DNA of 44,288 bases from Rhodospirillales bacterium (GTDB lineage: Bacteria > Vulcanimicrobiota > Vulcanimicrobiia > Vulcanimicrobiales > Vulcanimicrobiaceae): assembly GCA_025359485.1 (NCBI GenBank), contig JANYGA010000291.1:1-44288 (forward strand). The letters are read 5' to 3'. The translations under genes and the position numbers were made by a program. Each line of letters opens with the position of its first letter. Positions within the stretch are counted from its first letter, which is position 1. Under the pieces are notes generated by a model. That model worked only from the letters and a program-made list of their open reading frames with translations, searched no databases and had not been told where the DNA came from. Below are positions 765 to 44,288 of the stretch, in pieces.

Positions 765-768
<4 letters not shown>
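1..768 (-). CDS. CheR-type methyltransferase-like protein; the C-terminal end runs off the left edge of the window
   Basis: This frame is absent from the supplied ORF track because it has no stop codon inside the window. My translation of the minus strand from 768 down to 1 is uninterrupted: [171 protein letters not shown].. It is collinear with CheR landmarks: the N-terminal 'Y.F..Y....L.RRI..R' helix region, 'T.FFR', 'R.WSAxxSTGEEPYS', 'I.ATDI', 'F..HNL' and 'FD.I.CRNVLIYF'. The GTG at 766-768 overlaps the TGA (765-767) of the upstream kinase as GTGA. Confidence 0.6.
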
Positions 769-6479
<5,711 letters not shown>

Positions 6480-15090: not shown

Positions 15091-16218
15091 CTACGGCCGT
15101 TCGCGCGCCCAACGGCGAATCGCCGTCTCGGTGACGCGCCGTTCGAGTGCATGTAATTCCGTTTCGAGCGCATCGCGGTCGCGATCGACGGCCAAGCGTA
15201 GCGGCGCACGCGCGTAGACCGAGCCACGGTCGACGGCGACGCCGACGCGATGCATCGTCGCCCCGCTCCATCCCAGACCCGCGGCGAGCGCCTCGTCGAA
15301 GGCGTGCGCGCCGCGAAATGCGGGGATGACGGTCCTATCGGGCATCGTGATCGTATCGAGGGCGAAATCATACGGCAGCATCGCGGGATGGATGTTGAGC
15401 GTTTCGGGAAAGCGCGCCAGAAAAATCGCGGGCAAGACGTGCATCCAGCCGAGCAACAGCACGAGATCGGGTGACGTCTGGGCAACCGCGGCGATCACGC
15501 GATCGTCGTATGCGTCGCGCGATTCGTTCGCGCGATCCCAGGCGATGCAGCGCGTCGCGATGCCCGCGGCGTGAGCGCGTTCGAGCGCGTAGGCTTGCGG
15601 CCGATTCGCGACGAGCGTCGTGATGTCGAGTGGGACGCAACCTGCGGTTGCGGCATCGAGCAAGCCTGCGAAATTGCTGCCGTTTCCCGACGCGAGGACC
15701 GTCGTCCGATAACGCCGTTCGGTGCGATCGTCGACGCTTTGGACGAAGCGTGCGTGCGCGTGGCGTTCGAGAAATCCGATCGCGTCCGCGCCGTCGACCG
15801 CGGGGACGAGCGCCTGGCGATAGCCACGCTCGCGCATCGAGAATGCAGCGGCATGCAAGAGCACGCGGCCGATGCCGCGACCGCGCGCCGCGGGCACGAC
15901 GCCGAGCGGACCGACGATCCCGACACCGTCGCGCGCCATCCAAAAGCGGAGGTCGTCGTAGGCAAGTCCGCGTGCGTCGAAGGCCGCAAAGCCGACGAGT
16001 TCGCCCGCTTCGTGCGCGAGCCAAATGCCGCCCGCGGCCGCTTCATACGACGCCGTTCCCCCGAAGCGATCGTCGATCCATGAAAGGACCGTCTCGGGCG
16101 TGCGATGATCGCGACCACAGTAGATGCCGCGCTCGCGATCGAGCGCCTCGATCTCGTGGTGGACGTCGTCTTGAGCGAAGAGGGTGTCGTCGAGATCGAT
16201 CAGCAGATGGCTACGCAT
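15091..16218 (-). CDS. purN: GNAT acetyltransferase-like domain fused to phosphoribosylglycinamide formyltransferase (PurN)
   Basis: The N-terminal ~170 aa carry GNAT motif A 'GPLGVVPAARGRGIGRVLLHAAAFSMRERGY'. The C-terminal ~200 aa are PurN: 'TTVLASGNGSNFAGLLDA', 'DLVLLLGWMHVLP', 'NIHPAMLP' (catalytic N/H) and 'ATMHRVGVAVDRGSV' (Asp). An extra ~15-aa segment 'YDFALDTITMPDRTVIPA' sits between 'HPxxLP' and 'F.G'. The start is 7 nt after the purM stop. Confidence 0.85.
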   Translation of the reverse strand: MRSHLLIDLDDTLFAQDDVHHEIEALDRERGIYCGRDHRTPETVLSWIDDRFGGTASYEAAAGGIWLAHEAGELVGFAAFDARGLAYDDLRFWMARDGVGIVGPLGVVPAARGRGIGRVLLHAAAFSMRERGYRQALVPAVDGADAIGFLERHAHARFVQSVDDRTERRYRTTVLASGNGSNFAGLLDAATAGCVPLDITTLVANRPQAYALERAHAAGIATRCIAWDRANESRDAYDDRVIAAVAQTSPDLVLLLGWMHVLPAIFLARFPETLNIHPAMLPYDFALDTITMPDRTVIPAFRGAHAFDEALAAGLGWSGATMHRVGVAVDRGSVYARAPLRLAVDRDRDALETELHALERRVTETAIRRWARERP

Positions 16219-24870: not shown

Positions 24871-25119
24871 CGCCCGGTGTTGTACGGGGACGTTCACCTT
24901 TCTTGCCCAGCCGTGAGCCTCCAACGAGCGCCGGCCGGTATGCGCGCGCTTAGCGCGAAAGTCGCTTTCGGTTTTTCTCACTGGCGACGGTCGCGAAGCT
25001 CGTCCCCCGAATCGAGGAGGTGGTCCGGCGGCGCGCTAGTCGAGCGCGGGAGTTGCTCAGGGTTCCAAGCCCCTACGACGAGGGGTGATTTTGCGTCGTC
25101 CGCGGGAAAGAGCTTATCC

Positions 25120-28100: not shown

Positions 28101-28869
28101 CCCGATCGCGGGCACGCTCGCGTACGCCTCGGCGGGCCATCCGCCGCCCATCTTGCGCCATCCCGACGGTCGCATCGAAGCGCTCGGCGACGGCGGCCTC
28201 CCGCTCGGCCTGCGCGATTCGCGCGATCTCGGCGACGGACGCAGCGTCGACATCACGCGCGGATCGCAATTGGTGCTCTATACCGATGGCCTGACAGAAT
28301 CGTCGCGGGATGCCCTCGCCGGCGAGGAGCGGTTACGAGAGATCGTCGCGGGCGGCGCGTTCTTGGAGGCCGAGCGGCCGGCCCACTTTATTCGCGAAAC
28401 GTTTCTCGGCGGAAAACGCGGCACGGACGACATCGCGATCCTCGTCATCGGTATCGACGCCGATCCGACGGCCGACACCGACGCGAGTGACGTCCAGCAT
28501 TGGGTCTTCGACGTTCTGGACGTGCGCGCGGCCCGAGCGGCTCGCACCGAATTTCGGACGGCGCTCGCGGCGCGGAAGATCGACGCGCAACGCGCGCACG
28601 CAGCCGAACTCGTCTTCGGCGAACTCGTCGGGAACGTCGCGCGTTACGCACCCGGGAGCGTGCGCGTTTCGATCGATTGGACGACGGTGCCGCCCGTGCT
28701 CCACGTGATCGACGATGGTCCGGGTTTCCAACATCTCGCCCTCCTCCCAAACGACGTTTACAGCGAGTCCGGCCGCGGACTCTATCTCGTCTCCACCCTC
28801 ACTCGCGACTTCCACGTTGCCAAACGCCCACGCGGTGGCAGCCACGCCCGCGCCGTCCTCGCGGTCTAA
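25120..28869 (+). CDS. Multidomain megasensor: PAS-like, HisKA-HATPase_c, receiver, PAS, GAF, PP2C (SpoIIE) and an RsbW-like kinase domain
   Basis: I chose the ATG at 25120 (MDSALDRNASMRDRIESFGWASTSMGPRETWPESL). The ORF-track start at 24277 lies antisense inside the peptidase gene. Domain evidence in order: N-terminal PAS-like 'MIMWGPDLVQIYNEGYVPILG..FFTFSYSPIYD'; H-box 'FFSNVSHEFRTPLTL'; 'LLSNALKFT', 'VRDTGSGI' and 'GSGIGLALV'; receiver 'ILLADDN..DLIISDVMMPELDG..DDYLMKPF'; PAS 'EERFRALTASMPHIV..'; GAF; PP2C 'VGGDWYDAV', 'ISIGDVLGSGLDAAV', 'SAGHPPPIL' and 'LYTDGLTES'; C-terminal GHKL boxes 'GELVGNVARYA', 'HVIDDGPGF' and 'ESGRGLYLV'. Confidence 0.9.
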   Translation: MDSALDRNASMRDRIESFGWASTSMGPRETWPESLLTVLSLALNTSFAMMIMWGPDLVQIYNEGYVPILGDKHPASLGQGAEACWNDIWNSVGPMLRGVYDRGEPVYYENLPLQMQRHGGYEEAFFTFSYSPIYDGGVVAGIICVVSETTAHVLREREFAERATALAELDRAKTEFFSNVSHEFRTPLTLMLGPLDELRRDVEPRNAPLVDMTKRNALRLLKLVNTLLEFARIEAGRVDPLYQPTDLGAFTRELANVFRPAVESSGLRFDVRVEPVGTVAIDRNMWERIVFNLLSNALKFTIDGSISLEFRATNGEIRLDVRDTGSGIAPDDLANVFERFHRARNAPASRSHEGSGIGLALVQELVRLHDGTIAVESELGIGTTFSIALPSVPLTAATGDADEFALAAAPTLAAQYLAEVEALAQPLGGTSHVGDDAPTASREPKRQRLGSILLADDNADLRAFVSRVLSPHHDVTLAKNGREALEIARARRFDLIISDVMMPELDGFGLLDALRAEPATSRTPFIMLSARAGEEAAVGALARGADDYLMKPFSSDDLLGRVDAHLNAATLREKVIADLRESEERFRALTASMPHIVVESNGFGNLVYASDAFAAYTGRPISRALGDGWMSFMHHDDRPEAVVSWNRSMETGDPFIAEFRYRRADGTYRWHVAHVLAQHGADGALVRWTGTITDRHEARTAIDEREALARASRSLSESLDLATTLRTVAKVAVPRFADWVQIDLRTEHGTIETVAIAHGEAAKNAFAQSFVGREHINVEADVGSPFVIRTGQHYLVESFPMEALESAVLDEETRAMYRKLGLVSAIAVPLVANDRTLGALSAVYSESGRHYTHEDLPLLEELGRRAGLAIENASAFQREHRVADSFQHASLPNALPTVRGLRFDAIYSPGSAEALVGGDWYDAVRLFDGRIVISIGDVLGSGLDAAVTMGNVRQIIRGIAQVHADPALMLDAADRALRLEHDSKFVTAFVAVLDPIAGTLAYASAGHPPPILRHPDGRIEALGDGGLPLGLRDSRDLGDGRSVDITRGSQLVLYTDGLTESSRDALAGEERLREIVAGGAFLEAERPAHFIRETFLGGKRGTDDIAILVIGIDADPTADTDASDVQHWVFDVLDVRAARAARTEFRTALAARKIDAQRAHAAELVFGELVGNVARYAPGSVRVSIDWTTVPPVLHVIDDGPGFQHLALLPNDVYSESGRGLYLVSTLTRDFHVAKRPRGGSHARAVLAV

Positions 28870-30126: not shown

Positions 30127-31557
30127 TTATCGCGCGGCGGTCGCGAGAACGGCCGGCCCGTTGTAGGTTTCGGGATATTCACCCGTGAGGCAGCCCATGC
30201 ACATCTGACCGCGTTTGCGTGCGATCGCATCGAGCAATCCCTCTTTACTTAAGTACCCGAGCGAATCGGCACCGATCTTCTCACGGATCTCGTCGATCGT
30301 GAAGTTCGCCGCGATCAGTTCGTCGTGTGAGGCCATGTCGACGCCGAGATAACACGGATGGATGATCGGCGGTGACGTGATACGCACGTGCACTTCGCGC
30401 GCGCCCGCGTCGCGTAAGAGTTTCACGATGCGCGGCGTCGTCGTCCCGCGCACGATCGAATCGTCGACGACGACCACACGTTGGCCCGCGAGTAGCTCCA
30501 CGATCGGATTGAACTTGAGTTGCACGCCACGCGCGCGCATTTTTTGATCGGGACTGATGAACGTCCGGCCGATATAACGGTTCTTAATCAATCCTTCGAC
30601 GTACGGCAAACCCGCCTCTTGCGCGTAGCCGATGCCGCCGGGGATCGCACTATCGGGGATCGCCATCACGACGTCGGCATCGACGGGATGCTCGCGCGCG
30701 AGTTGGCGACCCATCGCCATCCGTGCCATGTAGATCGATTTGCCGCTGAGCACCGAATCGGGCCGCGCGAAATAGATGTACTCGAACATGCATAGCGCCT
30801 GCGGCTTGTGGTGCGCCATCTTGTCGTAATGGAGGCCGTCGTTATCGACCCACATGATCTCGCCCGCATCGAGTTCGCGAATGTACTGCGCGCCCACGGT
30901 CGCAAGCGCGCACGACTCCGATGCGAACATGTAGCCGCCACCGGGAAAGCGCCCGTAGCAGAGCGGTCGAACGCCCCAAGGATCGCGGAATGCGTAGAGC
31001 GATTTCTCCGTCGACATCACGATCGAATACGCGCCTTCGGCTCGACCCATCACGTGCCGGATTCGCGCGATCATGTCGGCGCCCGGCGCCTGCACGATCG
31101 CCTTCGCGAGCACTTCGGAATCCGACGTCGCCTGCAACACCGTCGCCGCATCGAGCGTCGAGCGCAGGTCGCCCGTATTGGTGAGATTACCGTTGTGGGA
31201 GACGGTCACGTCGCCGAAATCGGCGTGTTCGAGCAGGGGCTGCGCGTTGACGACCACCGACGACCCCGTCGTGGAATAGCGCGTATGGCCTACCGCAATG
31301 TAGCCCGTCAGGTTTCCGAGTATCTCCTCATCGAAGATACTCGAGATGAGCCCCATCTCGCGATGACAGACGATCGTCGCGCCGTCCGAGACCGCGATGC
31401 CCGCCGATTCTTGGCCGCGATGCTGCAAGGCATAGAGGCCAAAATACGCGTGGCGCGCGACTTCATTTCCGGGTGCGTAGATGCCGACGACCCCGCAAGC
31501 TTCGTGGAGCGTGTCGCCGGCCGGCATCGGCGCCTCGGCATCGTACGACCTAGCCAT
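30127..31557 (-). CDS. purF: Amidophosphoribosyltransferase PurF (Fe-S, propeptide-bearing type)
   Basis: The catalytic Cys context 'HEACGVVGIYA' follows a ~20-aa leader, and the PRPP loop is 'VVVVDDSIVRGTT'. Cys residues align with the B. subtilis 4Fe-4S ligands: 'ALCMFEYIYFARPDS', 'HPCYLGVDM' and 'CMGCLTGEYP'. Confidence 0.95.
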   Translation of the reverse strand: MARSYDAEAPMPAGDTLHEACGVVGIYAPGNEVARHAYFGLYALQHRGQESAGIAVSDGATIVCHREMGLISSIFDEEILGNLTGYIAVGHTRYSTTGSSVVVNAQPLLEHADFGDVTVSHNGNLTNTGDLRSTLDAATVLQATSDSEVLAKAIVQAPGADMIARIRHVMGRAEGAYSIVMSTEKSLYAFRDPWGVRPLCYGRFPGGGYMFASESCALATVGAQYIRELDAGEIMWVDNDGLHYDKMAHHKPQALCMFEYIYFARPDSVLSGKSIYMARMAMGRQLAREHPVDADVVMAIPDSAIPGGIGYAQEAGLPYVEGLIKNRYIGRTFISPDQKMRARGVQLKFNPIVELLAGQRVVVVDDSIVRGTTTPRIVKLLRDAGAREVHVRITSPPIIHPCYLGVDMASHDELIAANFTIDEIREKIGADSLGYLSKEGLLDAIARKRGQMCMGCLTGEYPETYNGPAVLATAAR

Positions 31558-32303: not shown

Positions 32304-33578
32304 TTACGGTGCGAGTTTGGCGATATCGCTGCGGTAGCTCAAGCGCACGCCGTTGCCGATGCGATGCGCGAGTTCGTCGACGGCCGCATACGCATTCGCA
32401 CGCGCGGCTGCGACGTCGTCGCCGAGCGCACTCACCGTGAGCACGCGCCCGCCGCCCGCATCGACGACCCCGTCGCGCAGCGCCGATGCGCCCCAGAACG
32501 CGACGCGATCGCCCGAGAGCGCGACGTCGGCACTGAGATCGCGAAGCGGCGTGCTGCTGCGCGGATAGTCGGCCGTCGCGAGCACGACGCCGACACACGC
32601 GCCGCCATCGAAGCGCGCGGCATCTTCATCGATCGCGCCGTCGGCAGCCGTTTTGAGTAAGCGCGCGAAATCGCCACGCACGCGCGGCATGAGCACTTGC
32701 GTTTCCGGATCGCCGAATCGCACGTTGAATTCGATGACGTATGGCCCGGTTGCCGTAAGCATCAAGCCGCAATACAGCACGCCGATATACTTTTCGCGAT
32801 CGAGCGCGAGACCGCTCACCACTTTCTCGAGCACGCGCGTGCGAACGACGTCGACGAGATCGTCGGGAAACCCGGCGGGCGGCGAATAGGCGCCCATACC
32901 ACCGGTGTTGGGCCCCGTGTCGCCGTCGCCCGCGCGCTTGTAGTCGCACGCCGATCCGATCGGTACGAACCGTTTGCCGTCGCCAATGGCGAAGATGCTG
33001 ATCTCGCGGCCTTCGAGTCGCTCTTCGAGCAACACGTCGCTTCCGCCACCGGGCACGCCCGCGCCGCCGTACCATTCGCGCAAGACCGAAAGCGCACTCT
33101 GCGCGTCGGGCGTCACGACGACGCCTTTGCCGGCCGCAAGCCCGTCGGCTTTGACGACGCATTCGCCGCGCCACTCCGCAAGCGTTTTCACCGCCGTCGC
33201 GAGTGAATGGACGACGCGCGCTTTGGCCGTCGGAATGCCGTGGCGTTCCATAAAACGTTTCGAATAGATCTTACTCGATTCGAGCCGACCGACCGCGCGA
33301 CCGGGGCCGAACGTCGAAATTTTCGCCTCGCGCAAGCGATCGCCGACACCCGCTGCGATGGCGGTCTCGGGGCCGAGCACGACGAGATCGATCTTCTCCG
33401 CAACCGCGCGCGCGACGAGCGCCTTCCCGTCGGTTGCGTTGATCGGCCAATTCTCGCCGCGCGTCGCGGTGCCCGCGTTTCCGGGTGCCGCGAAGATCGC
33501 ATCGCACGACGGCGATTGCGCGAGACGCCACGAGAGTGCGTCTTCGCGCGCACCGTTACCGACGACGAGGATGCGCAT
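32304..33578 (-). CDS. purD: Phosphoribosylamine-glycine ligase PurD
   Basis: I chose the ATG at 33578 (MRILVVGNGAREDALSWRLAQS). The ORF-track start at 33833 would overlap guaA. ATP-grasp strings include 'VVKADGLAAGKGV' and 'EFNVRFGDPETQ'. Confidence 0.95.
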   Translation of the reverse strand: MRILVVGNGAREDALSWRLAQSPSCDAIFAAPGNAGTATRGENWPINATDGKALVARAVAEKIDLVVLGPETAIAAGVGDRLREAKISTFGPGRAVGRLESSKIYSKRFMERHGIPTAKARVVHSLATAVKTLAEWRGECVVKADGLAAGKGVVVTPDAQSALSVLREWYGGAGVPGGGSDVLLEERLEGREISIFAIGDGKRFVPIGSACDYKRAGDGDTGPNTGGMGAYSPPAGFPDDLVDVVRTRVLEKVVSGLALDREKYIGVLYCGLMLTATGPYVIEFNVRFGDPETQVLMPRVRGDFARLLKTAADGAIDEDAARFDGGACVGVVLATADYPRSSTPLRDLSADVALSGDRVAFWGASALRDGVVDAGGGRVLTVSALGDDVAAARANAYAAVDELAHRIGNGVRLSYRSDIAKLAP

Positions 33579-33586
33579 GTTCGGTC

Positions 33587-35161
33587 CTACTCCCACTCCA
33601 CGGTCGCCGGCGGTTTGGAAGTGATGTCGTAGGCGATCCGGTTGACGCCCGCAACTTCGTTGACGATGCGCGTGCTGATTTTTTCGAGCAACGCATGCGG
33701 CAGACGCGCCCAATCGGCCGTCATCCCATCTTCGCTCGTAATCGCGCGAACCGCGACGAGATTGGCATACGTCCGACCGTCGCCCATCACGCCGACGCTC
33801 TGCAACGGCGTGAGCACCGCGAAGTATTGCCACGGCTTGGGATCGAGCGTTGCCGCTTCGATTTCGTCGGTGACGATTTTATCTGCGGCGCGCACGGTCT
33901 CCACACGATCGGCCGTCACTTCACCGAGCACGCGAACCGCGAGCCCGGGTCCCGGAAACGGCTGGCGTTGGACGATGGCATCGGGAAGGCCGAGCACGCG
34001 GCCGACTTCGCGCACTTCGTCTTTGAAGAGCGCGCGCAACGGCTCGACGAGCGTGAGCGCCATGTGCTCGGGGAGACCGCCGACGTTGTGATGGGATTTG
34101 ATTTTGTGCCCCGCTTTGCTGCCGGGCGTTTTGGATTCGATGACGTCGGGATAGAGCGTGCCCTGCACGAGAAATCCGACATCGGTTAACTTGTTCGCTT
34201 CTTCTTCGAAGATCGCGATGAATTCGTGGCCGATGCGGATGCGTTTTTCTTCGGGATCGATCACGCCCGCGAGACGCGCGAGAAAACGTTCGCGTGCATC
34301 GACGCGTACGACGTCGAGATGGAGCACGTCGCGAAAAGCCGCGACGACCGCATCGCCCTCGTTCGCACGCAAGAGACCCGTATCGACGAAGATACACGTG
34401 AGCTGCGTGCCGACGGCGCGCGCGACGAGCGTCGCAGCGACCGCCGAATCCACGCCACCCGAAAGCGCGCAGATCACGCGACCACCGCCGACTTGCGCTT
34501 TGATGTTCGCGATCGTCGTGTCGACGAACGAATCCATCTTCCAGGCGGCGGCGATTCCCGCAATCTCGTGCAAGAAATTCGCGATGACGGATTTGCCGGC
34601 ATCGGTGTGCACGACTTCGGGATGGAATTGCACGCCGTAGAGTTTGCGCGTCGCATCTCCGATCGCGGCCTGCGCGCATCCCGTCGTGCGCGCGAGCGTC
34701 GCGAAGCCCGGTGGCGGCGCGACGACCGTATCGCCGTGCGACATCCACGCGCGGCTCGTCTGCGCGACGCCCGCGAAGAGCGGCGATTGCGCGACGACTT
34801 CGAGCGTGGCGGCGCCGAATTCGCGATGTTGCGACCGCACGAGCGTGCCGCCGAGTTCGCGCGCCATGAGTTGCATGCCGTAGCAGATGCCGAGCACGGG
34901 AATGCCCGACGAAAAGACGCGCGGATCCACGCCGAGAGCATCGGGTGCGAGCGTACTTTCGGGGCCGCCGGTCAGCACGATTGCGGCTGGCTCGCGAGCG
35001 GAGATCGCCTCCCACGACGCATCGTGGGGCAAGATCTCGGAGTAGACGTCGGCCTCGCGAACGCGACGCGCGATCAACTGACTGTACTGCGCGCCAAAAT
35101 CTAAAATAACGACCGTCGCCGTCCGTACCGGCGCAATCGCGTTGGGTTGGGTCACCATCAC
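33587..35161 (-). CDS. guaA: GMP synthase (glutamine-hydrolysing) GuaA
   Basis: Motifs are '[20 protein letters not shown]', the GATase Cys 'GICYGMQLM', the PP-loop '[10 protein letters not shown]' and the C-terminal 'PPATVEWE'. The start is GTG at 35161 or ATG at 35158. Confidence 0.95.
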
Positions 35162-35974: not shown

Positions 35975-37111
35975 CTAGGTGAGAACGTCGGCCAGTCGAT
36001 CCGCATCGCGTGCCATCACGACTTCCATCGCGATCCGCTCGCCGACGGAGACGTCGCGACCCCAAAGGTAGGCGCTATACGGCGTATAGCGCGTGCCGGG
36101 CGAACCCGGAATGCGCAGCGAGACATCGTACACGACGAACGCTTTGGGCGGCCCGGCTACGATGATGCATTGCAGCGCAAAGGGTCCGATGACACCGGGC
36201 GCATTGGCTTCGCGCGCCGCGACGACGAAACGTTCGCCGATTTCGAAGGCTTTTTCGAGCATCGATTCGGTCAGCGTCGTTGCGATATGCCCAGCTTCTT
36301 CCATTCGAACCGGAATCGAAGCTGCAGCCGCGAGCTGGGACGGTGGTAAACTTTTGAGGCCGTCGAGGTTGGTCTGGCGTCGCGTGTCGGTCCCCAAGAG
36401 TTCGAGTTCGCCGAGCATCGGTGAGTAGAAAAAATTGAGGTTGACGCTCGGCCCGAGCGCATATTCCTCGATGCGCGCGGCGGCGAGCCCCGCAGGCGTC
36501 ACCATTCCGGCTGCGATCATCTTCTGGGCCTGCGCTTCGTAATTCGCGGGGGAATCGCAGAGGAAAAACGCGCGCTCGAAGGTCACGGTCGCGTGCGCGG
36601 CTTTCACCATCACCAAGCGATCGATTTCCGACGGTGATGCGAACGTGCGCGGATAGCGAATGCCCGCGCGTTCGAGGAGATCGTATTGATTTGCGGGTTC
36701 GTCCCGCTCTTCGGCACGCAACAACCTACGGTTCCCAAAGAACGGAATCTGCATTCGGCGCTCGATCTCGTCGTAGGAAAACTTTTCGTGGAGATAGACT
36801 TCGAACGAGCGATTGGCGACGAAGATCGCGTTTGCGTCGAGCAGCTTCGCCTGCACGTCGTCGTCGAGGAGCTTCGCGAACGTTTCGAGATGGAGCGTAG
36901 CATCGACGCACCCGCGCGCGGGCGCTTCGCGTCGTGCGTAATAGGTCGCGTACGTGCGCTCCCGACCGTCGGCCGTCACGATGAGATTGCGCAAGCCTCG
37001 GGCGCGCGCGCCGAAGGCGACGTCGAGCGCGGAATGGCTCCCGACCGAACACAGCGCGAGCGCGGCGCGATCGTAGCGCGCGAGCGCCGCGGCAACGCGA
37101 GGATCCGACAT
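35975..37111 (-). CDS. PurP-family ATP-grasp protein (diverged paralogue of 5-formaminoimidazole-4-carboxamide ribonucleotide synthetase)
   Basis: I chose the ATG at 37111 (MSDPRVAAALARYDRAALALCSVGSHSALDVAFGARARGL). It overlaps the upstream stop as TAATG. It is collinear with the PurP at 38240-39304: 'GSHSAL', 'IPFFGNRRLL', 'EEYALGPSVNLNFFYSP..GELELLGTD.R.QTN' and 'PFALQCII'. Confidence 0.8.
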   Translation of the reverse strand: MSDPRVAAALARYDRAALALCSVGSHSALDVAFGARARGLRNLIVTADGRERTYATYYARREAPARGCVDATLHLETFAKLLDDDVQAKLLDANAIFVANRSFEVYLHEKFSYDEIERRMQIPFFGNRRLLRAEERDEPANQYDLLERAGIRYPRTFASPSEIDRLVMVKAAHATVTFERAFFLCDSPANYEAQAQKMIAAGMVTPAGLAAARIEEYALGPSVNLNFFYSPMLGELELLGTDTRRQTNLDGLKSLPPSQLAAAASIPVRMEEAGHIATTLTESMLEKAFEIGERFVVAAREANAPGVIGPFALQCIIVAGPPKAFVVYDVSLRIPGSPGTRYTPYSAYLWGRDVSVGERIAMEVVMARDADRLADVLT

Positions 37112-38271
37112 TACGACGACGCGAGTTCTTGCGCTTGACGCGAGTTTGCGTATTGCACGAGAAGCGTCGTCTTCAACCGGCCCGCAGCGTCTTTCGTCTT
37201 CTCGGTTTCGACACGCTGCAGCAGACGAAACGCATCGAGCAACGTACCCGGCAACGTATAATCGTGCGGATATTGTTTCTGCCAATCGGCGATGGCGTTC
37301 TCGACCTGCAACGCATCGCTCTCCATCCGATAGCCCCAGCCCTTGTCGAGATATTTATTGATCCGCACGACTTCGTTGCGTACGCCGATCGGCGAAAATT
37401 TGAGGTTGCCGAAATATTCGTCGGCGGGCGCGGTGCGCGTAAGTTTGAGTTCGTGCGGGATCGCGCTCGTTCGACCGATGACTTTGAGATCGGGCGTGTG
37501 CTCGCGCCGATATTCGATCGCGCGCGCCGCCGTCCGGTCGTTGTCGGTAAAGCCGGGATCCGTGAGCGCACTTGCGGCGGTGGCGAACATCTCGCCGTAT
37601 TCTGGATCGGGCACGCGCGTGAGCGGGGTCGCGGGGTCGGCCGCATGTTGGAGCAACGAACTGCGGTACGCGAGATCGTGCGTGAGATTGTATCCTCGCA
37701 CGTCGGCCGTGATGAGTTGTACGAGGGCATCGCCGTCGTGATGGAACGCGTCGGCGTTGGCCTGCGCGTCGGTCTGGGCTTGCGAGGCCAACAGTTTTGG
37801 GTCGTCGCCGAGCGTATTCAGTCGCGCCGCGAGGGACTTCGCCTCGGCTCGATGTTGGGGGTCGCCGTTTTTGCCGACGTACGAGGCCGCCTCCAACACG
37901 TACCACAGCGCCGCGTCGTTGTTCGTGAGGGGATCGTAGTGGAGTTGCGTCGCGACGTCGACGGCGAGGCTCGCGACTTCGCCGTAATTCGGGTCGGTCG
38001 GTCGAAAGAGCGAGTAGGCCCGTCCGGCATCGAAGATCGTCGAGAGGTAGTAGAGCTCGTTTGCAAATGGCCAGTTTTTCGAGGCGCCGGTGTCGTAGGC
38101 CCGACGCATCGTTTGGTACAGCGCTTGAGGATCGGTCTCGATCGCCGCGCGAACCGGCACCATACTCGACACCGAAGAGGCCACGATGAATCCAAGCGCG
38201 GCGACGCCACGCACGACGCGCGTGCGAATCTGCGAAGCGCTACGCAATGCCGGAATCATCGAGCACCGCAT
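37111..38271 (-). CDS. Orphan hypothetical protein with a Sec-type signal peptide, encoded between the two purP genes
   Basis: Its amino-acid composition is natural, whereas the + strand ORF 37129-38301 is an R/G/V-rich shadow. The N-terminus is 'RTRVVRGVAALGFIVASSVSSMVPVRAAIETD'. The mature part has no Cys and I recognise no motif. The start is ambiguous: ATG at 38271 or 38259, or GTG near 38217. The first two overlap the purP 3' end. Confidence 0.6.
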   Translation of the reverse strand: MRCSMIPALRSASQIRTRVVRGVAALGFIVASSVSSMVPVRAAIETDPQALYQTMRRAYDTGASKNWPFANELYYLSTIFDAGRAYSLFRPTDPNYGEVASLAVDVATQLHYDPLTNNDAALWYVLEAASYVGKNGDPQHRAEAKSLAARLNTLGDDPKLLASQAQTDAQANADAFHHDGDALVQLITADVRGYNLTHDLAYRSSLLQHAADPATPLTRVPDPEYGEMFATAASALTDPGFTDNDRTAARAIEYRREHTPDLKVIGRTSAIPHELKLTRTAPADEYFGNLKFSPIGVRNEVVRINKYLDKGWGYRMESDALQVENAIADWQKQYPHDYTLPGTLLDAFRLLQRVETEKTKDAAGRLKTTLLVQYANSRQAQELASS

Positions 38272-39304
38272 GGAGATTGTTCGAGAGTAACGCGTTTTTA
38301 ATCTCGCGTGCGATGCGACGGCCCGTCGACATCGGCTCGCTGTAGTTGAGATACGAATACGGCGATCCATCGATAAATGGATTGGTGCCCGCGACGATGC
38401 GCGCCGAGATCTCCATCACGAAGAACTTCGCTTCGGGAGTGATGATCGTCTCGATGCAGAACGCTCCGAAAAGCCCTTTCTCGCCGCAGATCTCCTGGCT
38501 CACGCGCACCACGTCTTCGCCCATGCGATAGGCTTCGGCGAGCATGGATTCGCGCAAGACCAGCGGCGAGTTGCCGACCACGACGTAGCTCGGATCGATA
38601 TCCATGTGCTCTTGCGCGGCGGCCGGAATGCGACCGAGCGAATCGACGTTGGTTTCGTAACGACGATCCATACTCATGATTTCGAGCTTGCCAGTAAGCG
38701 GCGAATAGAAGTAGTGAATGTAGGCGGGCACGCCGATGATATACTCCTGAAGCATATACTGCTGCGTCAGGTGGCTTCCGCGCGCTTCGAAGTCTTGGGC
38801 GTCGCGAACGAAGAGATAGCCCTTGCCGCCCTGCGCGCCGTACATCTTCACGATGACGGGTCGATCGATTTCGGCTGCGGTGATGAATTGTTGCGGCAAC
38901 GTGAGGTTCGCGCGCGTGAGCCAGTCGCGTTGCTTCTCGCGGCTCGCTTCCCAATCGAGCACGGCCTTATTGCCGAAATACGGTATCTTCATCTTCTTGT
39001 GTTCGTCGAGTGAGAGATACGCGACGAACGAGCCGTGTGGCACGATGATCATCTTGCGCTTCTCGAGCTCGGGCACGAGGTCCATGAACTGCCCGTAGTG
39101 GTCGATGCCGATCACTTCATCGACGAACGCGTACGATCGGTAGAGCCGTTCGGTATCGCGATTGGCGATCGCGAGCGTGCGAAAGCCTTCATCGTGCGCG
39201 CCTTTGAGAATTTGGAGCGCGGAATGCGAGCCGAGCGTCGCGATCGTGTAGAAGTCGCTGGACTTAGCTTGGGCTCCGGTGCGGAGCAGTTCGGGTGCGA
39301 TCAT
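38240..39304 (-). CDS. purP: 5-formaminoimidazole-4-carboxamide-1-beta-D-ribofuranosyl 5'-monophosphate synthetase PurP (archaeal-type, formate- and ATP-dependent)
   Basis: 'YTIATLGSHSALQILKGAHDEGFRTLAI', 'IPYFGNKAVL', 'LQEYIIGVPAYIHYFYSPLTGKLEIMSMDRRYETNVD' and 'GAFCIETII' match the PurP (DUF1246 + DUF1297 ATP-grasp) family. The start overlaps the purS stop as ATGA. Confidence 0.9.
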   Translation of the reverse strand: MIAPELLRTGAQAKSSDFYTIATLGSHSALQILKGAHDEGFRTLAIANRDTERLYRSYAFVDEVIGIDHYGQFMDLVPELEKRKMIIVPHGSFVAYLSLDEHKKMKIPYFGNKAVLDWEASREKQRDWLTRANLTLPQQFITAAEIDRPVIVKMYGAQGGKGYLFVRDAQDFEARGSHLTQQYMLQEYIIGVPAYIHYFYSPLTGKLEIMSMDRRYETNVDSLGRIPAAAQEHMDIDPSYVVVGNSPLVLRESMLAEAYRMGEDVVRVSQEICGEKGLFGAFCIETIITPEAKFFVMEISARIVAGTNPFIDGSPYSYLNYSEPMSTGRRIAREIKNALLSNNLHAVLDDSGIA

Positions 39305-39750
39305 GCAACAGACGCTTTCTGGAACGCGGGATTACAAAGTAGGGTCTCGGTCGCAGCGGCGACCAGATCGACATTGGCGCGCACGCCAGGCGCGCCGTAG
39401 ATGCGCCAGGCGGTAAAACGCTCGAAGGCGCGGACGCCCGGGAGCACGCGGCCGCCCACACGGATGTCGGATGCCGTTTTGGGGCTCGCGAGATCGCCCA
39501 CCCATACTTCACCCGCATCGGGCGTCGCGAGCGCACGGACGCGCATGATGTGTTTGTTGGGATTGAAGAGCGTCTCGGTCGCGCGGACGCGTGTGACGAG
39601 ATCGTTCGCTTCTTCATCTTGCACATCGAAACGGTAGAGATCGGCACGTTCGAGCATCGCGACGCCGACGCCGAGGCGTTGCAAAGTGGCGAGCGCCGTA
39701 CGCGCCTCGTTATCGGGAATGATGAGCGCGACGTCGATGCAGCGAATCAT
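39301..39750 (-). CDS. purS: Internally duplicated PurS (FGAM synthase PurS subunit, two PurS-like halves in one chain)
   Basis: The protein is 149 aa, against about 80 aa for ordinary PurS. Half 1 reads 'VALIIPDNEARTALATLQRLGVGV..RADLYRFDV..TLFNPNKH'. Half 2 reads '..FERFTAWRIYGAPG..LVAAATETLLCNPAFQ'. Both halves end in the PurS-type 'L(L/F).NP' tail. The gene is linked to purQ and purP by ATGA overlaps. Confidence 0.7.
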   Translation of the reverse strand: MIRCIDVALIIPDNEARTALATLQRLGVGVAMLERADLYRFDVQDEEANDLVTRVRATETLFNPNKHIMRVRALATPDAGEVWVGDLASPKTASDIRVGGRVLPGVRAFERFTAWRIYGAPGVRANVDLVAAATETLLCNPAFQKASVA

Positions 39751-40532
39751 CGCAACGCCTTCGCGAGCCCGACGAAGAACGCGATTCCGCCCGACGGTGC
39801 GAGCATCGCGGCCGTATTACGGCGGGCCGCATCGCGCGAGGCGTCGACATGCATGTACGTCCACGCGTCGCGTTCGGGATGCGGCATGATCGCGAGCACG
39901 TTGCCGCGATCGTTGACGAGCGCCGCCGCGCCGAGTGCCGATCCGTTGGGAACATCGGCGTCACTCACGTTGCCGTCACGATCGCAGTAGACGAATGCCA
40001 CGCGTTCGTCGCGTGCGATCGCTTCGAGCACGAGCGGTTGTGCCGCGAGACGACCCTCGCCGTGCGATGCCCACGCCGGGATCACGATTCCCGGCGCCAT
40101 CTCGCGCGTGATCGCGCAGCGCTCGGGTGGAATCGCGAGCTTGACGTGCACGTGCGTCGAACGAAAACGACCGCCGTTTGCGTTCCGTGCGAAGCCCGCT
40201 TGCGCGCGTGCGTGGCCGTCGAGTGCGGGTGCGAGCCCGCTCTCGAGCAAGATCTGCGCGCCGTTGCAGATTCCGAGCACGAACTTGCCCGCCGCGGCGC
40301 CTTCGCGAACCGCGACCATCAGTCGAGCGTGCGCGGCGATCGCACCCGCGCGGACGCGATCTTCGTATGCGAATCCGCCGGGCAGCACGTACGCATCGAA
40401 CGCGCGGACCGCATCGAGATCGGCATTCCAATGCACGAGTTCGGTGTCGAGCCCGACCGCGCGACAGGCGCGAATCGTCTCGTCTTCGGAATTAGTCCCG
40501 GGGAAGGCGAGAACGCCGACGCGCGCGCTCAC
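39747..40532 (-). CDS. purQ: FGAM synthase glutaminase subunit PurQ
   Basis: Motifs are 'VGVLAFPGTNSEDE', 'LPGGFAYEDR', the nucleophile 'GICNGAQIL' and 'IMPHPER'. Confidence 0.95.
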   Translation of the reverse strand: MSARVGVLAFPGTNSEDETIRACRAVGLDTELVHWNADLDAVRAFDAYVLPGGFAYEDRVRAGAIAAHARLMVAVREGAAAGKFVLGICNGAQILLESGLAPALDGHARAQAGFARNANGGRFRSTHVHVKLAIPPERCAITREMAPGIVIPAWASHGEGRLAAQPLVLEAIARDERVAFVYCDRDGNVSDADVPNGSALGAAALVNDRGNVLAIMPHPERDAWTYMHVDASRDAARRNTAAMLAPSGGIAFFVGLAKALR

Positions 40533-42913
40533 GCGGAAATCTCACGAACGGCGACATCGTCGTAAAACGAACGCAACGGTGCGGACCATATTTCGCGCAG
40601 ATGCGCGACCTCCATCGTGTGACCGAACGCCGCGAGCGACGCCTCGCTCGTTACCGTACCGATGCGCGGCCGATGCGTCGGCTCGACACCACACGTTCGT
40701 GCGAGCGCCTCGAATGCGACTGCGTCGGTGACCTCGACGACGAAGCCGCCACACTCACCGAAGAGCGCCTCCGTGTTCCCGACCATACCGAACGTAAAAT
40801 CCGATGGTGCCGTCGTGAACCGCACGCCCAGTCGTGCGCGCGCGGCAAAGGCCATCTCGGCGACCGTCACGAGCATGCCACCATCGGAAACGTCGTGCGC
40901 GGCGACGACGTACCCCGCGCGGTTGGCCGCGTCGAGCAACGCGAGTTCCGCGCGTAACGCCGCGTAATCGACGCGCGCGACGCGCCGATCGTCGAGTGCG
41001 AACGCATCGGCAAACGCACTCGCGCCCAGAGCATCGCTAAAATTGCCCAGATAATAGAGCGCGTGGTCGGCGCCTTTGAGACCGGGCGTCAGCGCGAAGG
41101 CCACATCGTCGAGCGTGCCCACGCACGCGACGATCGGCGACGCCGGAATCGATCTGCCGTTGGCTGCCGTGTTGTAAAGACTCACGTTCCCCGAGACGTA
41201 CGGCACCGCGAGTTCGCGTGCGGCATGCGCGAGACCGGCGATCGCCACGACGAGTTCGCCCATCTGCTCTGGCACTTCGGGGTTGCCGAAGTTGAGACAA
41301 TCGGTCATCGCCGCGGGCTTAGCACCGACCGCCGCGACGTTGCGAATCGATTCGACGACGGCGTTCTCCGCCGCGAGCCGCGCGTCGATCCCGCCGAGCC
41401 GCGGATTGCCGCCCAGACCGAGCGCGCAACCCAGCGGCGCACCGGGCACGGGCACGATGAGGCCCGCATCGCCGTAGCCCGCGGGAATCGCCGTCGTGCC
41501 GCGCACGACGGAATCGAAGCGTTCGTAAATCGGCGCGCGCGAGCAGACGTCGAGATGCGCGAGGATGCGTTCGAGCGTCTGCGGCAACGCGGCGAAATAC
41601 GCGTCGTCGACGCGAGCCGCGGGCTCCGCAATTCCGGGCATCGGCGCGTCTTGCGCGACCGACACCGGGGCCGTCGCACGATCGTAACGGATGCCGTCGG
41701 TGAAGAAATCGAGATCGACATCCATCACGGTCGCACCGCGATGATGCAAGACGTAACGTCGTTCCTTCGTAACCGTACCGATGACCGCCGCACGCGCGCC
41801 ACGCGCGATTTGCGGCAACGAAAACTCTTCGTTGTAGATCGCTAGGAGCGTGGGCGTGAACTCCGGCGGCACGACCCACGTGAGGCGTTCTTGCGTTTCG
41901 CCGACCGCTATGACGGCGGGTGGAAGATGCTCTTGCGACGTCGGGCATTTATCGAGATCGACGATCGCACCGAAGCCGCCGCTCGCGCAAATCTCCGCGG
42001 TACAGCCCATGATGCCGCCGGCGCCGAGATCTTTAAAGCCCACGGTAAAGCCGCGTTCTTTAAGCACGTCGAAGACGCGATACGACGCGCGCATGATGAC
42101 GTTTTTGAGAAACGGATCGGGCACTTGCACCGCGCCCTTGTTCAGTTCGGCATCGTCTTCATCGAGAACCAGCGACGAAAAGGCCGCGCCGCCGAAACCA
42201 CTGCGATCCGTCGCCTTACCGACGAGGACGATATCCCACCCTTCGGCATTCGCGGGTGCTTTCGAATGGATGACATCGGTCGCTTCGAGGATGCCGAGTG
42301 CGACCACGTTGACCAAACAATTATCGCGAAAGCCTTCGTGAAAGAAGACGTCGCCCGCGATATTCGGCACGCCGATCGCGTTGCCGTACGCCGAAATTCC
42401 GTCGACGACGCCCTGCGCCACGTAGCGGCAATGCGGATCGTCGAGCGGCCCGAAACGCAGCGGATCGGCGACGGCGATCACGCGCGCGCCCATACAGAGC
42501 ACGTCGCGGACGATGCCGCCGATGCCGGTCGCCGCGCCTTCGAAGGGCACGACCTGCGATGGGTGATTGTGCGATTCGTGTGCGAAGACGATGCCGTACG
42601 TCTTGCCCTCGAAGTCGCCGAGCCGCACGATGCCCGCATCTTCTTGCGGGCCTTGCAAGACGGTCGGCCCGTCGGTCGGTAAACCGCGGAGATGATGACG
42701 CGAGCTCTTGTACGAGCAATGCTCGCTCCACTGGGCGTCGAAAGCGTGCGCTTCGACAACCGAGGGATCGCGACCGAGCGTCGCCGCGATCGTGCGGATC
42801 TCCAATTGCTTGAGTGCTAAACCTTGGTGGCGCAGCGTGCCTTCGAGCGTCGCATCGTCGACGCCGAGCACGCGGACGATCTCGACGGTCGGCGCGACGG
42901 GCGCGCCCGACAC
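40529..42913 (-). CDS. purL: FGAM synthase subunit PurL (small PurL type)
   Basis: Motifs are 'FDAQWSEHCSYKSS', 'AHESHNHPSQV' and 'DLGAGGI'. I chose the GTG at 42913 (VSGAPVAPTVEIV..), 4 nt after the purC stop. The ORF-track start at 43177 lies inside purC. Confidence 0.95.
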   Translation of the reverse strand: MSGAPVAPTVEIVRVLGVDDATLEGTLRHQGLALKQLEIRTIAATLGRDPSVVEAHAFDAQWSEHCSYKSSRHHLRGLPTDGPTVLQGPQEDAGIVRLGDFEGKTYGIVFAHESHNHPSQVVPFEGAATGIGGIVRDVLCMGARVIAVADPLRFGPLDDPHCRYVAQGVVDGISAYGNAIGVPNIAGDVFFHEGFRDNCLVNVVALGILEATDVIHSKAPANAEGWDIVLVGKATDRSGFGGAAFSSLVLDEDDAELNKGAVQVPDPFLKNVIMRASYRVFDVLKERGFTVGFKDLGAGGIMGCTAEICASGGFGAIVDLDKCPTSQEHLPPAVIAVGETQERLTWVVPPEFTPTLLAIYNEEFSLPQIARGARAAVIGTVTKERRYVLHHRGATVMDVDLDFFTDGIRYDRATAPVSVAQDAPMPGIAEPAARVDDAYFAALPQTLERILAHLDVCSRAPIYERFDSVVRGTTAIPAGYGDAGLIVPVPGAPLGCALGLGGNPRLGGIDARLAAENAVVESIRNVAAVGAKPAAMTDCLNFGNPEVPEQMGELVVAIAGLAHAARELAVPYVSGNVSLYNTAANGRSIPASPIVACVGTLDDVAFALTPGLKGADHALYYLGNFSDALGASAFADAFALDDRRVARVDYAALRAELALLDAANRAGYVVAAHDVSDGGMLVTVAEMAFAARARLGVRFTTAPSDFTFGMVGNTEALFGECGGFVVEVTDAVAFEALARTCGVEPTHRPRIGTVTSEASLAAFGHTMEVAHLREIWSAPLRSFYDDVAVREISA

Positions 42914-42917
42914 CGCG

Positions 42918-44105
42918 TCAGGCAAGGCCGACCGGTGGCCCGGGAGCGTTGATCTGCGCGTCCGCACCGAGCACCGCGGAGCGCGCGTTCGCCTGCACGA
43001 GCAGCACGCGGCCGAACATGACCGTGTCGTCCATCGCGAGCGTCTTCGCAACCACGAGTGCGAGTTCGCTCGCATCGAACTCGGTCGCATCGAACACCGG
43101 CGTCGGCGTCGCGGCCGATAGCATCGCCGCGAGGTGCGGACCCGATGCGACGTAGACGAGTCGCGCGAAGGTCGCATCGAGTTGCTGCACGGCCTGCAAG
43201 ACGTACGCTGGCACGAGATGCGTCGAAACCACGCGACGCAAACTCTGCAAGCCGAACACGTTCGTCTGCGCGATCACGGGATCGAGCAACGCGACGCTCT
43301 GCGCGCCGTCGGCGACGTAGGCGACCATGCCCGACCGCAGCGCCGGAAACGAGCCGACGAGATCGGCGACCGTTTCGTAATTCGCGTGCACGCGCGCAAG
43401 GTCGTCCGGCGTTACCGTTTCGAGATCGCGATACATCTGCTTGTCGAGCATGAGCTCTTCGCGGCCTTGGGGCCATACACGCCACGAATCGTTGTCGATG
43501 ACGTCGGCGATGACGAGATTGCCGCGTCCTTCGCCGCCCGAGAGGCGACCGAATTCGATTTTGAGATCGACGAGGAGCGTCTCGCGGCTACGCCACGCAT
43601 GTGCGAGAATTTCGAAGGTGATGCGCGCGATCTCGCTCATCATGCCGAGCTCTTGCGGCGTCGCGAGCCCGCGATGCACGATGTCGTCGATCTCGATGAG
43701 CGGATCGTGATTGGCGTCGTCTTTGAGGAAAAACTCGACCATGCGCGGGACGAGGATCGCGCCTTTGGCGATGCCGGGCTTGCGTTTGACGAGCGAGCCC
43801 GCGGCGACGCCGCGTACGACGACTTCGATCGGAATCATGTTCGCGCGACGCACGAGCATTTCGTTATCGTCGTCGTCTTCGCCGCCGGAAAGATAGTGCG
43901 TCGGCAACCCGCACAAATTTAATAACCGAAAGACTCGCGCCGTCGTCTTCGCGGCGATGCGGCCCTTACCCGGAAGCTCGTCGCGCCGCGCGCCGTCTCC
44001 CGCCGTGATATTGTCGAGTGCGGTCACGACGAGCGTGTCGGGTTCGCCCGGCTTCTCGTAGAGCACTTTGGTCTTGCCGCGCGCGACTTCGAGACCCTTA
44101 TTCAC
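42918..44105 (-). CDS. purC: SAICAR synthetase (PurC) with a C-terminal ~150-aa degenerate PurE-like (AIR carboxylase fold) domain
   Basis: The N-terminal ~245 aa are PurC ('ARGKTKVLYE', 'LDNITAGDG', 'IPIEVVVRG..AGS', 'LVDLKIEFG'). The C-terminal domain aligns by eye with PurE. 'MVAYVADGAQSV' corresponds to 'VAIVMGSKSDW'. 'RRVVSTHLVP' corresponds to 'VEVVSAHRTP'. 'LVYVASGPHLAAMLSAATPTPVF' corresponds to 'VIIAGAGGAAHLPGMIAAKTLVPVL'. The GTG start at 44105 overlaps the upstream stop. Confidence 0.85.
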   Translation of the reverse strand: MNKGLEVARGKTKVLYEKPGEPDTLVVTALDNITAGDGARRDELPGKGRIAAKTTARVFRLLNLCGLPTHYLSGGEDDDDNEMLVRRANMIPIEVVVRGVAAGSLVKRKPGIAKGAILVPRMVEFFLKDDANHDPLIEIDDIVHRGLATPQELGMMSEIARITFEILAHAWRSRETLLVDLKIEFGRLSGGEGRGNLVIADVIDNDSWRVWPQGREELMLDKQMYRDLETVTPDDLARVHANYETVADLVGSFPALRSGMVAYVADGAQSVALLDPVIAQTNVFGLQSLRRVVSTHLVPAYVLQAVQQLDATFARLVYVASGPHLAAMLSAATPTPVFDATEFDASELALVVAKTLAMDDTVMFGRVLLVQANARSAVLGADAQINAPGPPVGLA

Positions 44106-44288
44106 GTCGCGCTCTCGACGAGTGCGCGCGGTTGCGGGAACGGTGCGAGGGTTTTGATGCGCGCGACGAGGGCTTTGAGGCGGGCAATAATGCCCGGTGC
44201 CACGGCTGCGGGCGCAGCGCCGAAATTCGGCGCCACGGGTGCGAGGCCGAGGCTGGCCGCCGTGCCGTCGCGCGCGGCGTTTTTGTAA
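44102..44288 (-). CDS. C-terminal end of an unidentified upstream gene (5' part lies outside the window)
   Basis: This is not in the ORF track. My translation is ..YKNAARDGTAASLGLAPVAPNFGAAPAAVAPGIIARLKALVARIKTLAPFPQPRALVESAT*. Its TGA overlaps the purC GTG (GTGA). By position it could be another pur gene, but I cannot identify it from 61 residues. Confidence 0.4.
   Translation of the reverse strand, partial: YKNAARDGTAASLGLAPVAPNFGAAPAAVAPGIIARLKALVARIKTLAPFPQPRALVESAT

Follow-up and report, generated by a model that had tools for sequence, protein, structure and literature searches.

A PAICS-type SAICAR synthetase of Eremiobacterota carrying a degenerate, putatively non-catalytic PurE-derived domain

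What purpose does a PurE-like domain serve when the residues with which PurE works have decayed? This question is raised by one gene in a 44,288-nt contig (JANYGA010000291.1, assembly GCA_025359485.1; the whole stretch is referred to below as the window). Going by the names that near-identical proteins carry, the host is a soil bacterium of the Eremiobacterota (Vulcanimicrobiota). The gene encodes a synthetase of succinylaminoimidazole-carboxamide ribonucleotide (SAICAR), PurC, followed by a tail that resembles PurE, the enzyme family that converts 5-aminoimidazole ribonucleotide (AIR) to carboxy-AIR (CAIR). An earlier, sequence-only reading of this DNA left two alternatives for the tail: a divergent but active carboxylase or mutase that channels CAIR to PurC, or a catalytically dead scaffold. 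The analysis favors the second. The preferred reading, with a probability of roughly 0.7, is that the protein is a working PAICS-type SAICAR synthetase carrying a pseudo-AIR-carboxylase (pseudo-AIRc) scaffold domain of PurE ancestry, most likely class II. An active, channeling carboxylase or mutase finds no support.

PurC and a PurE-derived tail in one chain

According to the list of open reading frames (ORFs), the protein is encoded by a single uninterrupted frame of 395 amino acids (aa) that runs on the minus strand from 44105 down to 42918 and begins with GTG. The sequence-only reading had placed both PurC and the tail in one ORF at this location, which is what is found. An exact look-up of the 395-aa protein gave no match. 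The following parts can be distinguished.

42918..44105, minus strand: whole ORF, PAICS-type PurC plus degenerate AIRc (PurE-like) domain (ORF list; best PDB matches PAICS 4ja0 and 2h31)
43416..44087, minus strand: SAICAR synthetase (PurC) domain, residues 7-230 (Pfam PF01259, E=3.7e-57)
43332..43415, minus strand: PAICS-like linker, residues 231-258, with a long helix at 233-250 (model secondary structure)
42948..43331, minus strand: degenerate AIRc/PurE-derived domain, residues 259-386, with four beta-alpha units and two C-terminal helices (profile, Foldseek, model)

Orthologue counts in this text refer to 81 proteins, namely the window protein and 80 others extracted from related loci. Matches to the gene were found in 195 species-representative genomes, of which the best 80 were used; their labels read Eremiobacterota/Vulcanimicrobiota, or else they seem to be bins of that phylum under a wrong name.

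A complete PurC does precede the tail, as had been claimed. The PF01259 score of 194 bits lies far above the cut-off of 20, and the TIGR00081 score (145.5 bits) falls under the equivalog cut-off of 189.9, which fits a PurC of the PAICS type better than a typical bacterial one. In Foldseek comparisons with solved PurC structures, the PurC half reaches template-modelling (TM) scores of 0.90-0.93, normalised to the target, at a root-mean-square deviation (rmsd) of about 2 A. In an alignment with 18 distant PAICS-type proteins, residues K11, K13, R98, S104, D180, E184, R209, K222, and R226 are invariant. The ATP- and CAIR-binding residues of Escherichia coli PurC are K11, K13, R94, S100, D175, E179, R199, and R215 (PMC3261824). 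They are matched here by K11, K13, R98, S104, D180, E184, R209, and R226, the equivalence being judged from spacing. The PurC half retains all residues invariant in PAICS-type and classical PurCs, and the domain is apparently intact. It is predicted to convert CAIR, aspartate, and ATP to SAICAR. In the linker that follows, L236, Y243, E244, V246, and F253 are invariant in the 81 species.

Recognition of the tail depends on the method used. As a single sequence, it scores 15-18 bits against Pfam AIRC (PF00731; cut-off 30) and 23.6 bits against TIGR01162 (cut-off 149.6), and both values lie under the respective cut-offs. When the whole protein is compared with the PDB, the alignment spans both domains of Bombyx PAICS (4ja0, E=1.8e-57) and human PAICS (2h31, E=2.8e-51), and the best stand-alone PurC chains reach only about 1e-34. 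A profile was also built from 15 diverse orthologous C-domains, restricted to residues 256-395 so that PurC was excluded. It gave 21 PDB matches, of which 20 were PurE or PAICS; the top match was the AIRc domain of Bombyx PAICS 4ja0, aligned end to end at E=1e-11, and profile E-values for stand-alone PurE ranged from 1e-7 to 1e-2. Pfam AIRC was matched by 14 of the 15 tails in the profile set. A generic Rossmann-like domain unrelated to PurE was considered and ruled out, as the profile matches almost exclusively PurE.

Structure prediction gives the same picture. An AlphaFold2 model was computed from a 66-sequence alignment that included PAICS sequences, with a pLDDT of 93.1 and a pTM of 0.90. 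A shallower alignment, composed of sequences at least 79% identical and fragments, gave a model with a pLDDT of 58, and the broader-alignment model was used instead. In Foldseek, the whole-chain model matches human PAICS 6yb8_A with TM scores of 0.87/0.83 and an rmsd of 3.0 A, and the tail matches PurE structures with target-normalised TM scores of 0.62-0.74. Two of the checks proposed in the sequence-only reading, the profile search and the superposition, led to PurE. Judged by profile and model, the tail is related to PurE by descent and by fold (the flavodoxin-like PurE fold). The chain has the PAICS arrangement of an N-terminal SAICAR synthetase, a linker helix, and a C-terminal AIRc-derived domain, and the claim that PurC precedes a PurE-like domain in the PAICS order is upheld by profile, structure, and whole-chain alignment. 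The further claim, that the tail aligns along the whole PurE core, needs correction: a segment of about 24-30 residues between beta4 and alpha4 is absent.

Decay of the carboxylase site and selection on the tail

The 81 orthologues were compared with human PAICS, whose active-site residues were taken from PMC9376930. The following elements of the tail can be told apart.

43296..43316, minus strand: remnant of the 'GSxSD' nucleotide-binding loop, reads V-A-D-G-A-Q-S, residues 264-270 (alignments)
43209..43226, minus strand: remnant of the 'SAH[KR]xP' loop, reads S-T-H-L-V-P, residues 294-299 (alignment of 81 species)
43131..43151, minus strand: remnant of the '70s loop', reads V-A-S-G-P-H-L, residues 319-325 (alignment)
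43071..43091, minus strand: deletion site, residues 339-345, where the canonical 'NCPP...SSLRxPSG..TV' segment and strand beta5 are absent (HMMER, model)
42948..43073, minus strand: C-terminal helices alpha4 and alpha5, residues 345-386, the best-conserved part of the degenerate domain (81 species)

The three loop readings given earlier for this protein recur unchanged: 'ADGAQS' for 'GSKSD' at residues 265-270, 'STHL' for 'SAHR' with its His at residues 294-297, and 'SGPHLAA' for 'GGAAHLPG' at residues 321-327. In the nucleotide-binding loop, position 266 is always acidic (D or E) among the 81 species; positions 267-270 are G/S, P/A, E/Q/D, and variable, respectively. The registers given by HMMER and MAFFT differ by one residue in this loop; the Ser-Ser-Asp triad is absent in both. 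The 70s loop defines the class of the enzyme, with AGGAAHLPG in class I and AGRSNGLG in class II. Here it is 3 residues shorter than in class II, and its length and sequence vary across the Eremiobacterota orthologues. H324 of 'SGPHLAA' was examined as a counterpart of the class I His of 'AAHLPG' and rejected, as only 5 of 81 species have His at this position.

The catalytic His is universally conserved and essential in PurE of both classes, I and II, and human PAICS H303Y as well as E. coli PurE H45N/Q/W are inactive (PMC9376930). In the window protein, the residue corresponding to His303 of human PAICS is H296 (codon at 43218-43220). Only 17 of the 81 species have His at position 296; the rest have A, S, T, or E. 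Position 297 is K or R in 48 of 81, and the combination S-x-H-K/R occurs in none. The flanking S294 and P299 are invariant. By this alignment, the retained His is a feature of a sub-lineage only.

The fourth change is a loss of structure. HMMER aligns the window protein to 4ja0 with a gap of about 24 residues, the deleted segment amounting overall to about 24-30 residues, and the model sheet has four strands versus five in canonical PurE. Fourteen canonical fused AIRc domains share 48 conserved positions, and 17 of these fall inside segments deleted in the Eremiobacterota proteins. Only 11 are kept in at least 75% of these proteins (V292, S294, L303, A320, L325, T333, P336, V337, A349, A353, and D382), all of them in strands or helices. 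At the sequence level, the chain consequently lacks the mark of a bifunctional PAICS, which is the possession of both activities, because the carboxylase motifs are absent or not conserved. A tail of this composition should be unable to bind or carboxylate AIR in the known way, and it is very probably catalytically dead.

These results bear directly on the possibility that the tail is a divergent AIR carboxylase or N5-carboxyaminoimidazole ribonucleotide (N5-CAIR) mutase with a remodelled site that makes CAIR beside PurC. Several observations speak for it: no purE or purK lies in the nearly complete pur cluster or near the gene in the 80 genomes (see below), His296 is present in the window protein, S294 and an 'x-R/K-T-P' context are conserved, and the domain is under purifying selection. 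Moreover, the methanobacterial PurE' domain, which likewise has low similarity, is needed for complementation (PMC3261824). However, the catalytic His is missing in 64 of 81 orthologues, and in no orthologue do His and Lys/Arg occur together. The nucleotide loop has an invariant acidic residue but not the Ser/Ser/Asp triad, the length of the 70s loop is not constant, and the 'SSLRxPSG' segment is deleted, whereas an enzyme used across a phylum would be expected to keep its catalytic residues. An active tail is therefore considered improbable.

The decay does not extend to the domain as a whole. The ORF is intact, without stops, and 393-412 aa long in 81 of 81 genomes. Mean pairwise identity among the 81 orthologues is 54% in the tail and 79% in PurC. 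The ratio of nonsynonymous to synonymous substitution (dN/dS, rough Nei-Gojobori estimate) is about 0.42 in the tail versus about 0.18 in PurC; synonymous sites are near saturation, so that only the contrast between the two values is trustworthy. Twenty-seven tail columns are at least 95% conserved. The near-invariant columns include R290, S294, P299, Q304, Q308, F313, K354, D360, G365, R366, L369, Q371, N373, R375, S376, and D382, with R315 just under the threshold (94%). Within alpha4 and alpha5, K354, G365, R366, L369, Q371, R375, S376, and D382 are invariant, position 360 is D in 80 of 81 species, and position 373 is N in 77 of 81. A 'D..xxGR' pattern in these C-terminal helices is common to the window protein and PAICS. 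The tail is under purifying but relaxed selection, which acts mainly on the strands and the C-terminal helices.

Consequently, it is hardly credible that the tail is a functionless, decaying remnant, or that the fusion is an assembly or frameshift artefact. Such a view would account for the faster evolution of the tail relative to PurC. It is opposed by the intact frame in 81 independent genomes, by a dN/dS well under 1 with 27 near-invariant columns, and by sequencing data: the same contiguous sequence was recovered in four DNA sequencing runs, and contigs from soil runs labelled RNA-Seq, whose library type is uncertain, cover the tail, the purL junction, and the PurC-domain boundary. The conservation of the ORF in 81 genomes rules out an assembly artefact. 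The RNA-labelled contigs also give weak support to expression of the fused gene.

Role of the tail and source of CAIR

In the preferred reading, the tail would act as a structural module that oligomerises, stabilises, or docks the PurC domains, on the model of the octamer core that AIRc forms in PAICS. CAIR would be supplied by a different enzyme; a canonical purE at some other place in the genome, alone or accompanied by purK, is the presumed source. In PurE and PAICS, the sheet core and the C-terminal helices build the oligomer. A structural role is favored because the family preserves precisely the sheet core and the two C-terminal helices. That such a role of AIRc can outlive catalysis is suggested by the recurrence of the same decay and segment loss in choanoflagellates and other lineages (described in the last section). 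A precedent exists in the methanobacterial PurE-PurE' protein, for which a structural but required second domain was proposed (PMC3261824). The balance tips modestly towards the tail being a scaffold for self-assembly, a less secure proposal than the loss of catalysis.

A dead tail could also serve in another way, as a docking module on the octamer of a separate, true PurE. This would tether PurC to the source of labile CAIR and create a non-covalent, PAICS-like metabolon. The proposal draws on the general knowledge that the retained strands and C-terminal helices make subunit contacts in PurE and PAICS, on the clustering of invariant, surface-type polar residues in helices alpha2 and alpha5, and on the precedent of channeling in PAICS (PMC9376930). 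Against it, no partner has been identified, and docking of this kind is regarded as unlikely. Less likely still, and very doubtful, is a regulatory role in which the old nucleotide pocket binds a new ligand and controls PurC allosterically. The invariant R290, S294, Q304, Q308, and R315 do surround the former 40s loop, and pseudoenzyme domains often turn into sensors. On the other hand, the pocket loops vary in length and sequence between species, which would be unexpected for a conserved ligand site, and part of the pocket is deleted.

The gene neighborhood bears on the source of CAIR. The purine genes and neighboring frames in the window are as follows.

40529..42913, minus strand: purL, the adjoining gene, with a GTG start 4 nt past the purC stop codon (Pfam FGAR-AT_linker, AIRS, AIRS_C)
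44102..44288, minus strand: 3' end of the gene upstream, taken as purB from synteny (translation; end-of-ORF match to related loci)
30127-31557: purF
32304-33833: purD
33587-35161: guaA
16226-17317: purM
15091-16218, minus strand: GNAT-purN fusion with an N-terminal GNAT acetyltransferase and Formyl_trans_N, adjoining purM
35975-37285 and 38240-39304, both minus strand: two purP paralogues (DUF1246+DUF1297)
39301-39750, minus strand: ORF of 149 aa in the PurS position, between purQ and purP
37111-38370, minus strand: ORF between the two purP genes, at most 419 aa long, matched by nothing in Pfam or NCBIfam

The fused gene is closely integrated into this cluster. Its GTG start overlaps the TGA stop of the upstream gene, the two forming GTGA at 44102-44105. 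The final 26 or so residues of the upstream gene match the C-termini of ORFs that precede the fused gene in related loci, and the gene is marked as purB because the matching ORF in locus L001 carries Lyase_1/ADSL_C. The overlap with the purB stop and the 4-nt gap to purL therefore point to a tightly coupled purB-purC-purL-purQ operon.

Among these otherwise nearly complete pathway genes, no purE, purK, or purH is present in the 44,288-nt window. The absence of a visible stand-alone purE or purK, remarked on in the sequence-only reading, is thus supported by domain searches and by tblastn. The tblastn queries were five canonical class II AIRc domains and E. coli PurE and PurK. In many bacteria, purE is located away from the other pur genes, and its absence from this neighborhood is compatible with a purE elsewhere in the genome. 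For Vulcanimicrobium alpinus and 'Ca. Lamibacter', the supplementary material of the published papers contained no purE, purK, or KEGG Orthology (KO) entries, and a literature search on Eremiobacterota together with purine or purE found nothing relevant.

Several points weigh against a dead scaffold fed by a separate PurE. When the tblastn search was extended to 10 kb around the gene in the 80 related genomes, together with the window (1.34 Mb), only the fused gene's own tail was matched, and AIR to CAIR is the only step without a candidate in this neighborhood. The deleted segment contributes subunit contacts in PurE octamers, so that an octamer like that of PAICS cannot be taken for granted. 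Several polar residues of the domain are invariant (R290, S294, Q304, Q308, R315, K354, R366, Q371, R375, S376, and D382), and they could make up a new site instead of an interface. How the two domains are oriented to each other in the model may have been inherited from the PAICS sequences in its alignment. Finally, V. alpinus, the phylum's only member in culture, grows only with yeast extract, and the culture was kept under 10% CO2 (PMC9758169); owing to the need for yeast extract, its physiology leaves purine prototrophy undemonstrated.

In a more far-reaching proposal, Eremiobacterota would have no canonical PurE or PurK at all, and AIR would be converted to CAIR by a new route. The reaction could be performed by a remodelled tail (using, for example, R290, S294, Q304, Q308, and R315). 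Alternatively, another product of the cluster could perform it, for instance the second of the PurP-like ATP-grasp paralogues, and the dead tail would hand the product to PurC. This is considered a long shot.

Other features of the cluster are recorded here in their own right. PurP is a formate-dependent FAICAR (formamidoimidazole-carboxamide ribonucleotide) synthetase, an archaeal-type enzyme, and two such genes lie inside this bacterial pur cluster in a window without purH. They score 377 and 232 bits, under the NCBIfam equivalog cut-offs of about 556-603, and the second is the more divergent. No gene in the pur cluster is accounted for as the inosine monophosphate (IMP) cyclohydrolase. At a place equivalent to that of the ORF at 37111-38370, a gene is called in L001 (234 aa). 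The 149-aa ORF in the PurS position, roughly double the size of PurS, gives no Pfam match at 1e-5, and its only match is to PRK05783, at 15 bits; this ORF may encode a PurS that has diverged or been duplicated. At the contig end (44183-44288, minus strand), about 35 residues of the upstream purB-like frame look unrelated to purB homologues, and this end may be misassembled. Elsewhere in the window are two very large signalling proteins: a hybrid histidine kinase of 1904 aa that combines 8-9 HAMP repeats with one GAF and three receiver domains (765-6479, minus strand) and a 1530-aa kinase-receiver-PAS-GAF-SpoIIE phosphatase-HATPase_c_2 protein (24277-28869, plus strand).

Relatives, origin, and meaning

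A search of 1.84 billion representative proteins returned two further representatives of the family, at 62-66% identity, and the next two-domain proteins stood at 32-43%. Seven loci (L004, L009, L012, L023, L028, L037, and L067) carry the Eremiobacterota-type gene at 64-83% identity under other taxon labels, namely Rhodospirillales, Alphaproteobacteria, Janthinobacterium, Acidiferrales, Binatia, Limnocylindria, and Verrucomicrobiia; these are probably mislabelled or chimeric bins. In L001 (ERZ25039496 contig_2692, 2.38 Mb), purC is called in 2 pieces, purL in 2 or more, and purQ in 2. Split gene calls of this kind are typical of frameshift errors in a long-read assembly, and the 180-aa P0017 is such a fragment.

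Two groups of more distant relatives are informative. The first consists of canonical fusions with GSxSD, SAHK, AGRSNxLG, CPP, and SSLRxPSG, found in P0168 (Microgenomates/Woykebacteria, of the Candidate Phyla Radiation, CPR), P0169, P0170, P0179, and animal PAICS. The second consists of degenerate PAICS-like proteins that lack the AIRc catalytic motifs and the same segment: Monosiga brevicollis XP_001749986.1 (P0181), Barroeca monosierra (P0191), P0171, P0175, and P0197. In a neighbour-joining tree of the PurC domain, which is rough and carries no support values, the Eremiobacterota clade groups with bacterial PAICS-type PurCs, including P0168, P0169, P0179, and a Thermomicrobiales PurC-PurF protein. 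Animals and choanoflagellates are placed elsewhere, and P0171 is sister to the canonical P0170. From these sequences, loss of the carboxylase with retention of the domain looks recurrent across lineages, and it would have occurred at least twice more besides Eremiobacterota.

The CPR-type fusions (OGV95225.1 and OGY25244.1, the P0168 cluster; also P0169, P0170, and P0179) have the same architecture, are bacterial, and have a PurC domain 47-49% identical to that described here. They keep GSxSD, SAHK, AGRSNALG, CPP, and SSLRxPSG, whereas the Eremiobacterota proteins keep none of these intact. They are presumably active carboxylases and likely model the ancestor. In this scenario, an ancestral bacterial fusion of PurC and class II PurE, similar to those of CPR, would have lost its carboxylase active site in the stem of Eremiobacterota. 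Three loops (nucleotide, His/Lys, and 70s) would have decayed and the beta5 segment would have been deleted, with selection maintaining the four remaining strands and the C-terminal helices. A class II ancestry of the tail is, on the sequences compared, the most likely one.

With animal PAICS (human 6YB8/2H31, Bombyx 4JA0), the window protein has in common the domain order, the linker helix, and the 'D..xxGR' motif. Animal PAICS has intact MGSxSD, SAHK, and AGRSNGL motifs, whereas the window protein has no MGSxSD loop, reads STHL, and has a shortened 70s loop; NCPP...SSLRxPSG and beta5, both kept in animal PAICS, are deleted. The bacterial host and the coupling in a purB-purC-purL operon are further differences. 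The choanoflagellate proteins (P0181, P0191), together with P0171, P0175, and P0197, are similar in that behind PurC they carry an AIRc-like domain that is shortened and without the motifs. Nevertheless, these proteins fall in other clades of the PurC tree, which points to an independent origin, and their remaining sequence differs from that of the window protein. No studies of these choanoflagellate and P0171-type degenerate proteins were found in the searched literature.

Stand-alone PurE, both class I (E. coli 1QCZ) and class II (Treponema denticola 3RG8), belongs to the same fold family as the tail. It differs in having five strands, whereas the tail has four, catalytic loops that are not conserved, and scores below the Pfam and TIGRFAM cut-offs. 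The methanobacterial PurE-PurE' protein is comparable in that a poorly conserved, possibly structural PurE-like domain is fused to a purine enzyme, and its PurE' half, of low similarity, is required for complementing purE and purK mutants (PMC3261824). There, the partner is an active PurE; in the window protein, it is PurC.

The protein is thus a bacterial PAICS-type protein with a phylum-conserved pseudo-AIRc domain, and the evidence shows no new mechanism. The PAICS architecture, usually deemed animal, is present in bacteria, in canonical form in CPR and in a putative dead-carboxylase form throughout the phylum Eremiobacterota. Beyond what it tells about the evolution of PAICS and about pseudoenzymes, the case has a practical consequence for annotation. 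The Joint Genome Institute (JGI) names of the gene fragments P0009, P0016, P0021, and P0033 are 'NCAIR mutase' or 'AIR carboxylase/SAICAR synthase', and metabolic reconstructions that follow such annotations and count the dead domain as PurE could wrongly credit Eremiobacterota with a complete purine pathway. If it were true that closed Eremiobacterota genomes have no canonical PurE, the finding would become much more interesting. As they stand, the Eremiobacterota proteins would offer natural 'scaffold-only' variants for dissecting the assembly of PAICS and its channeling.

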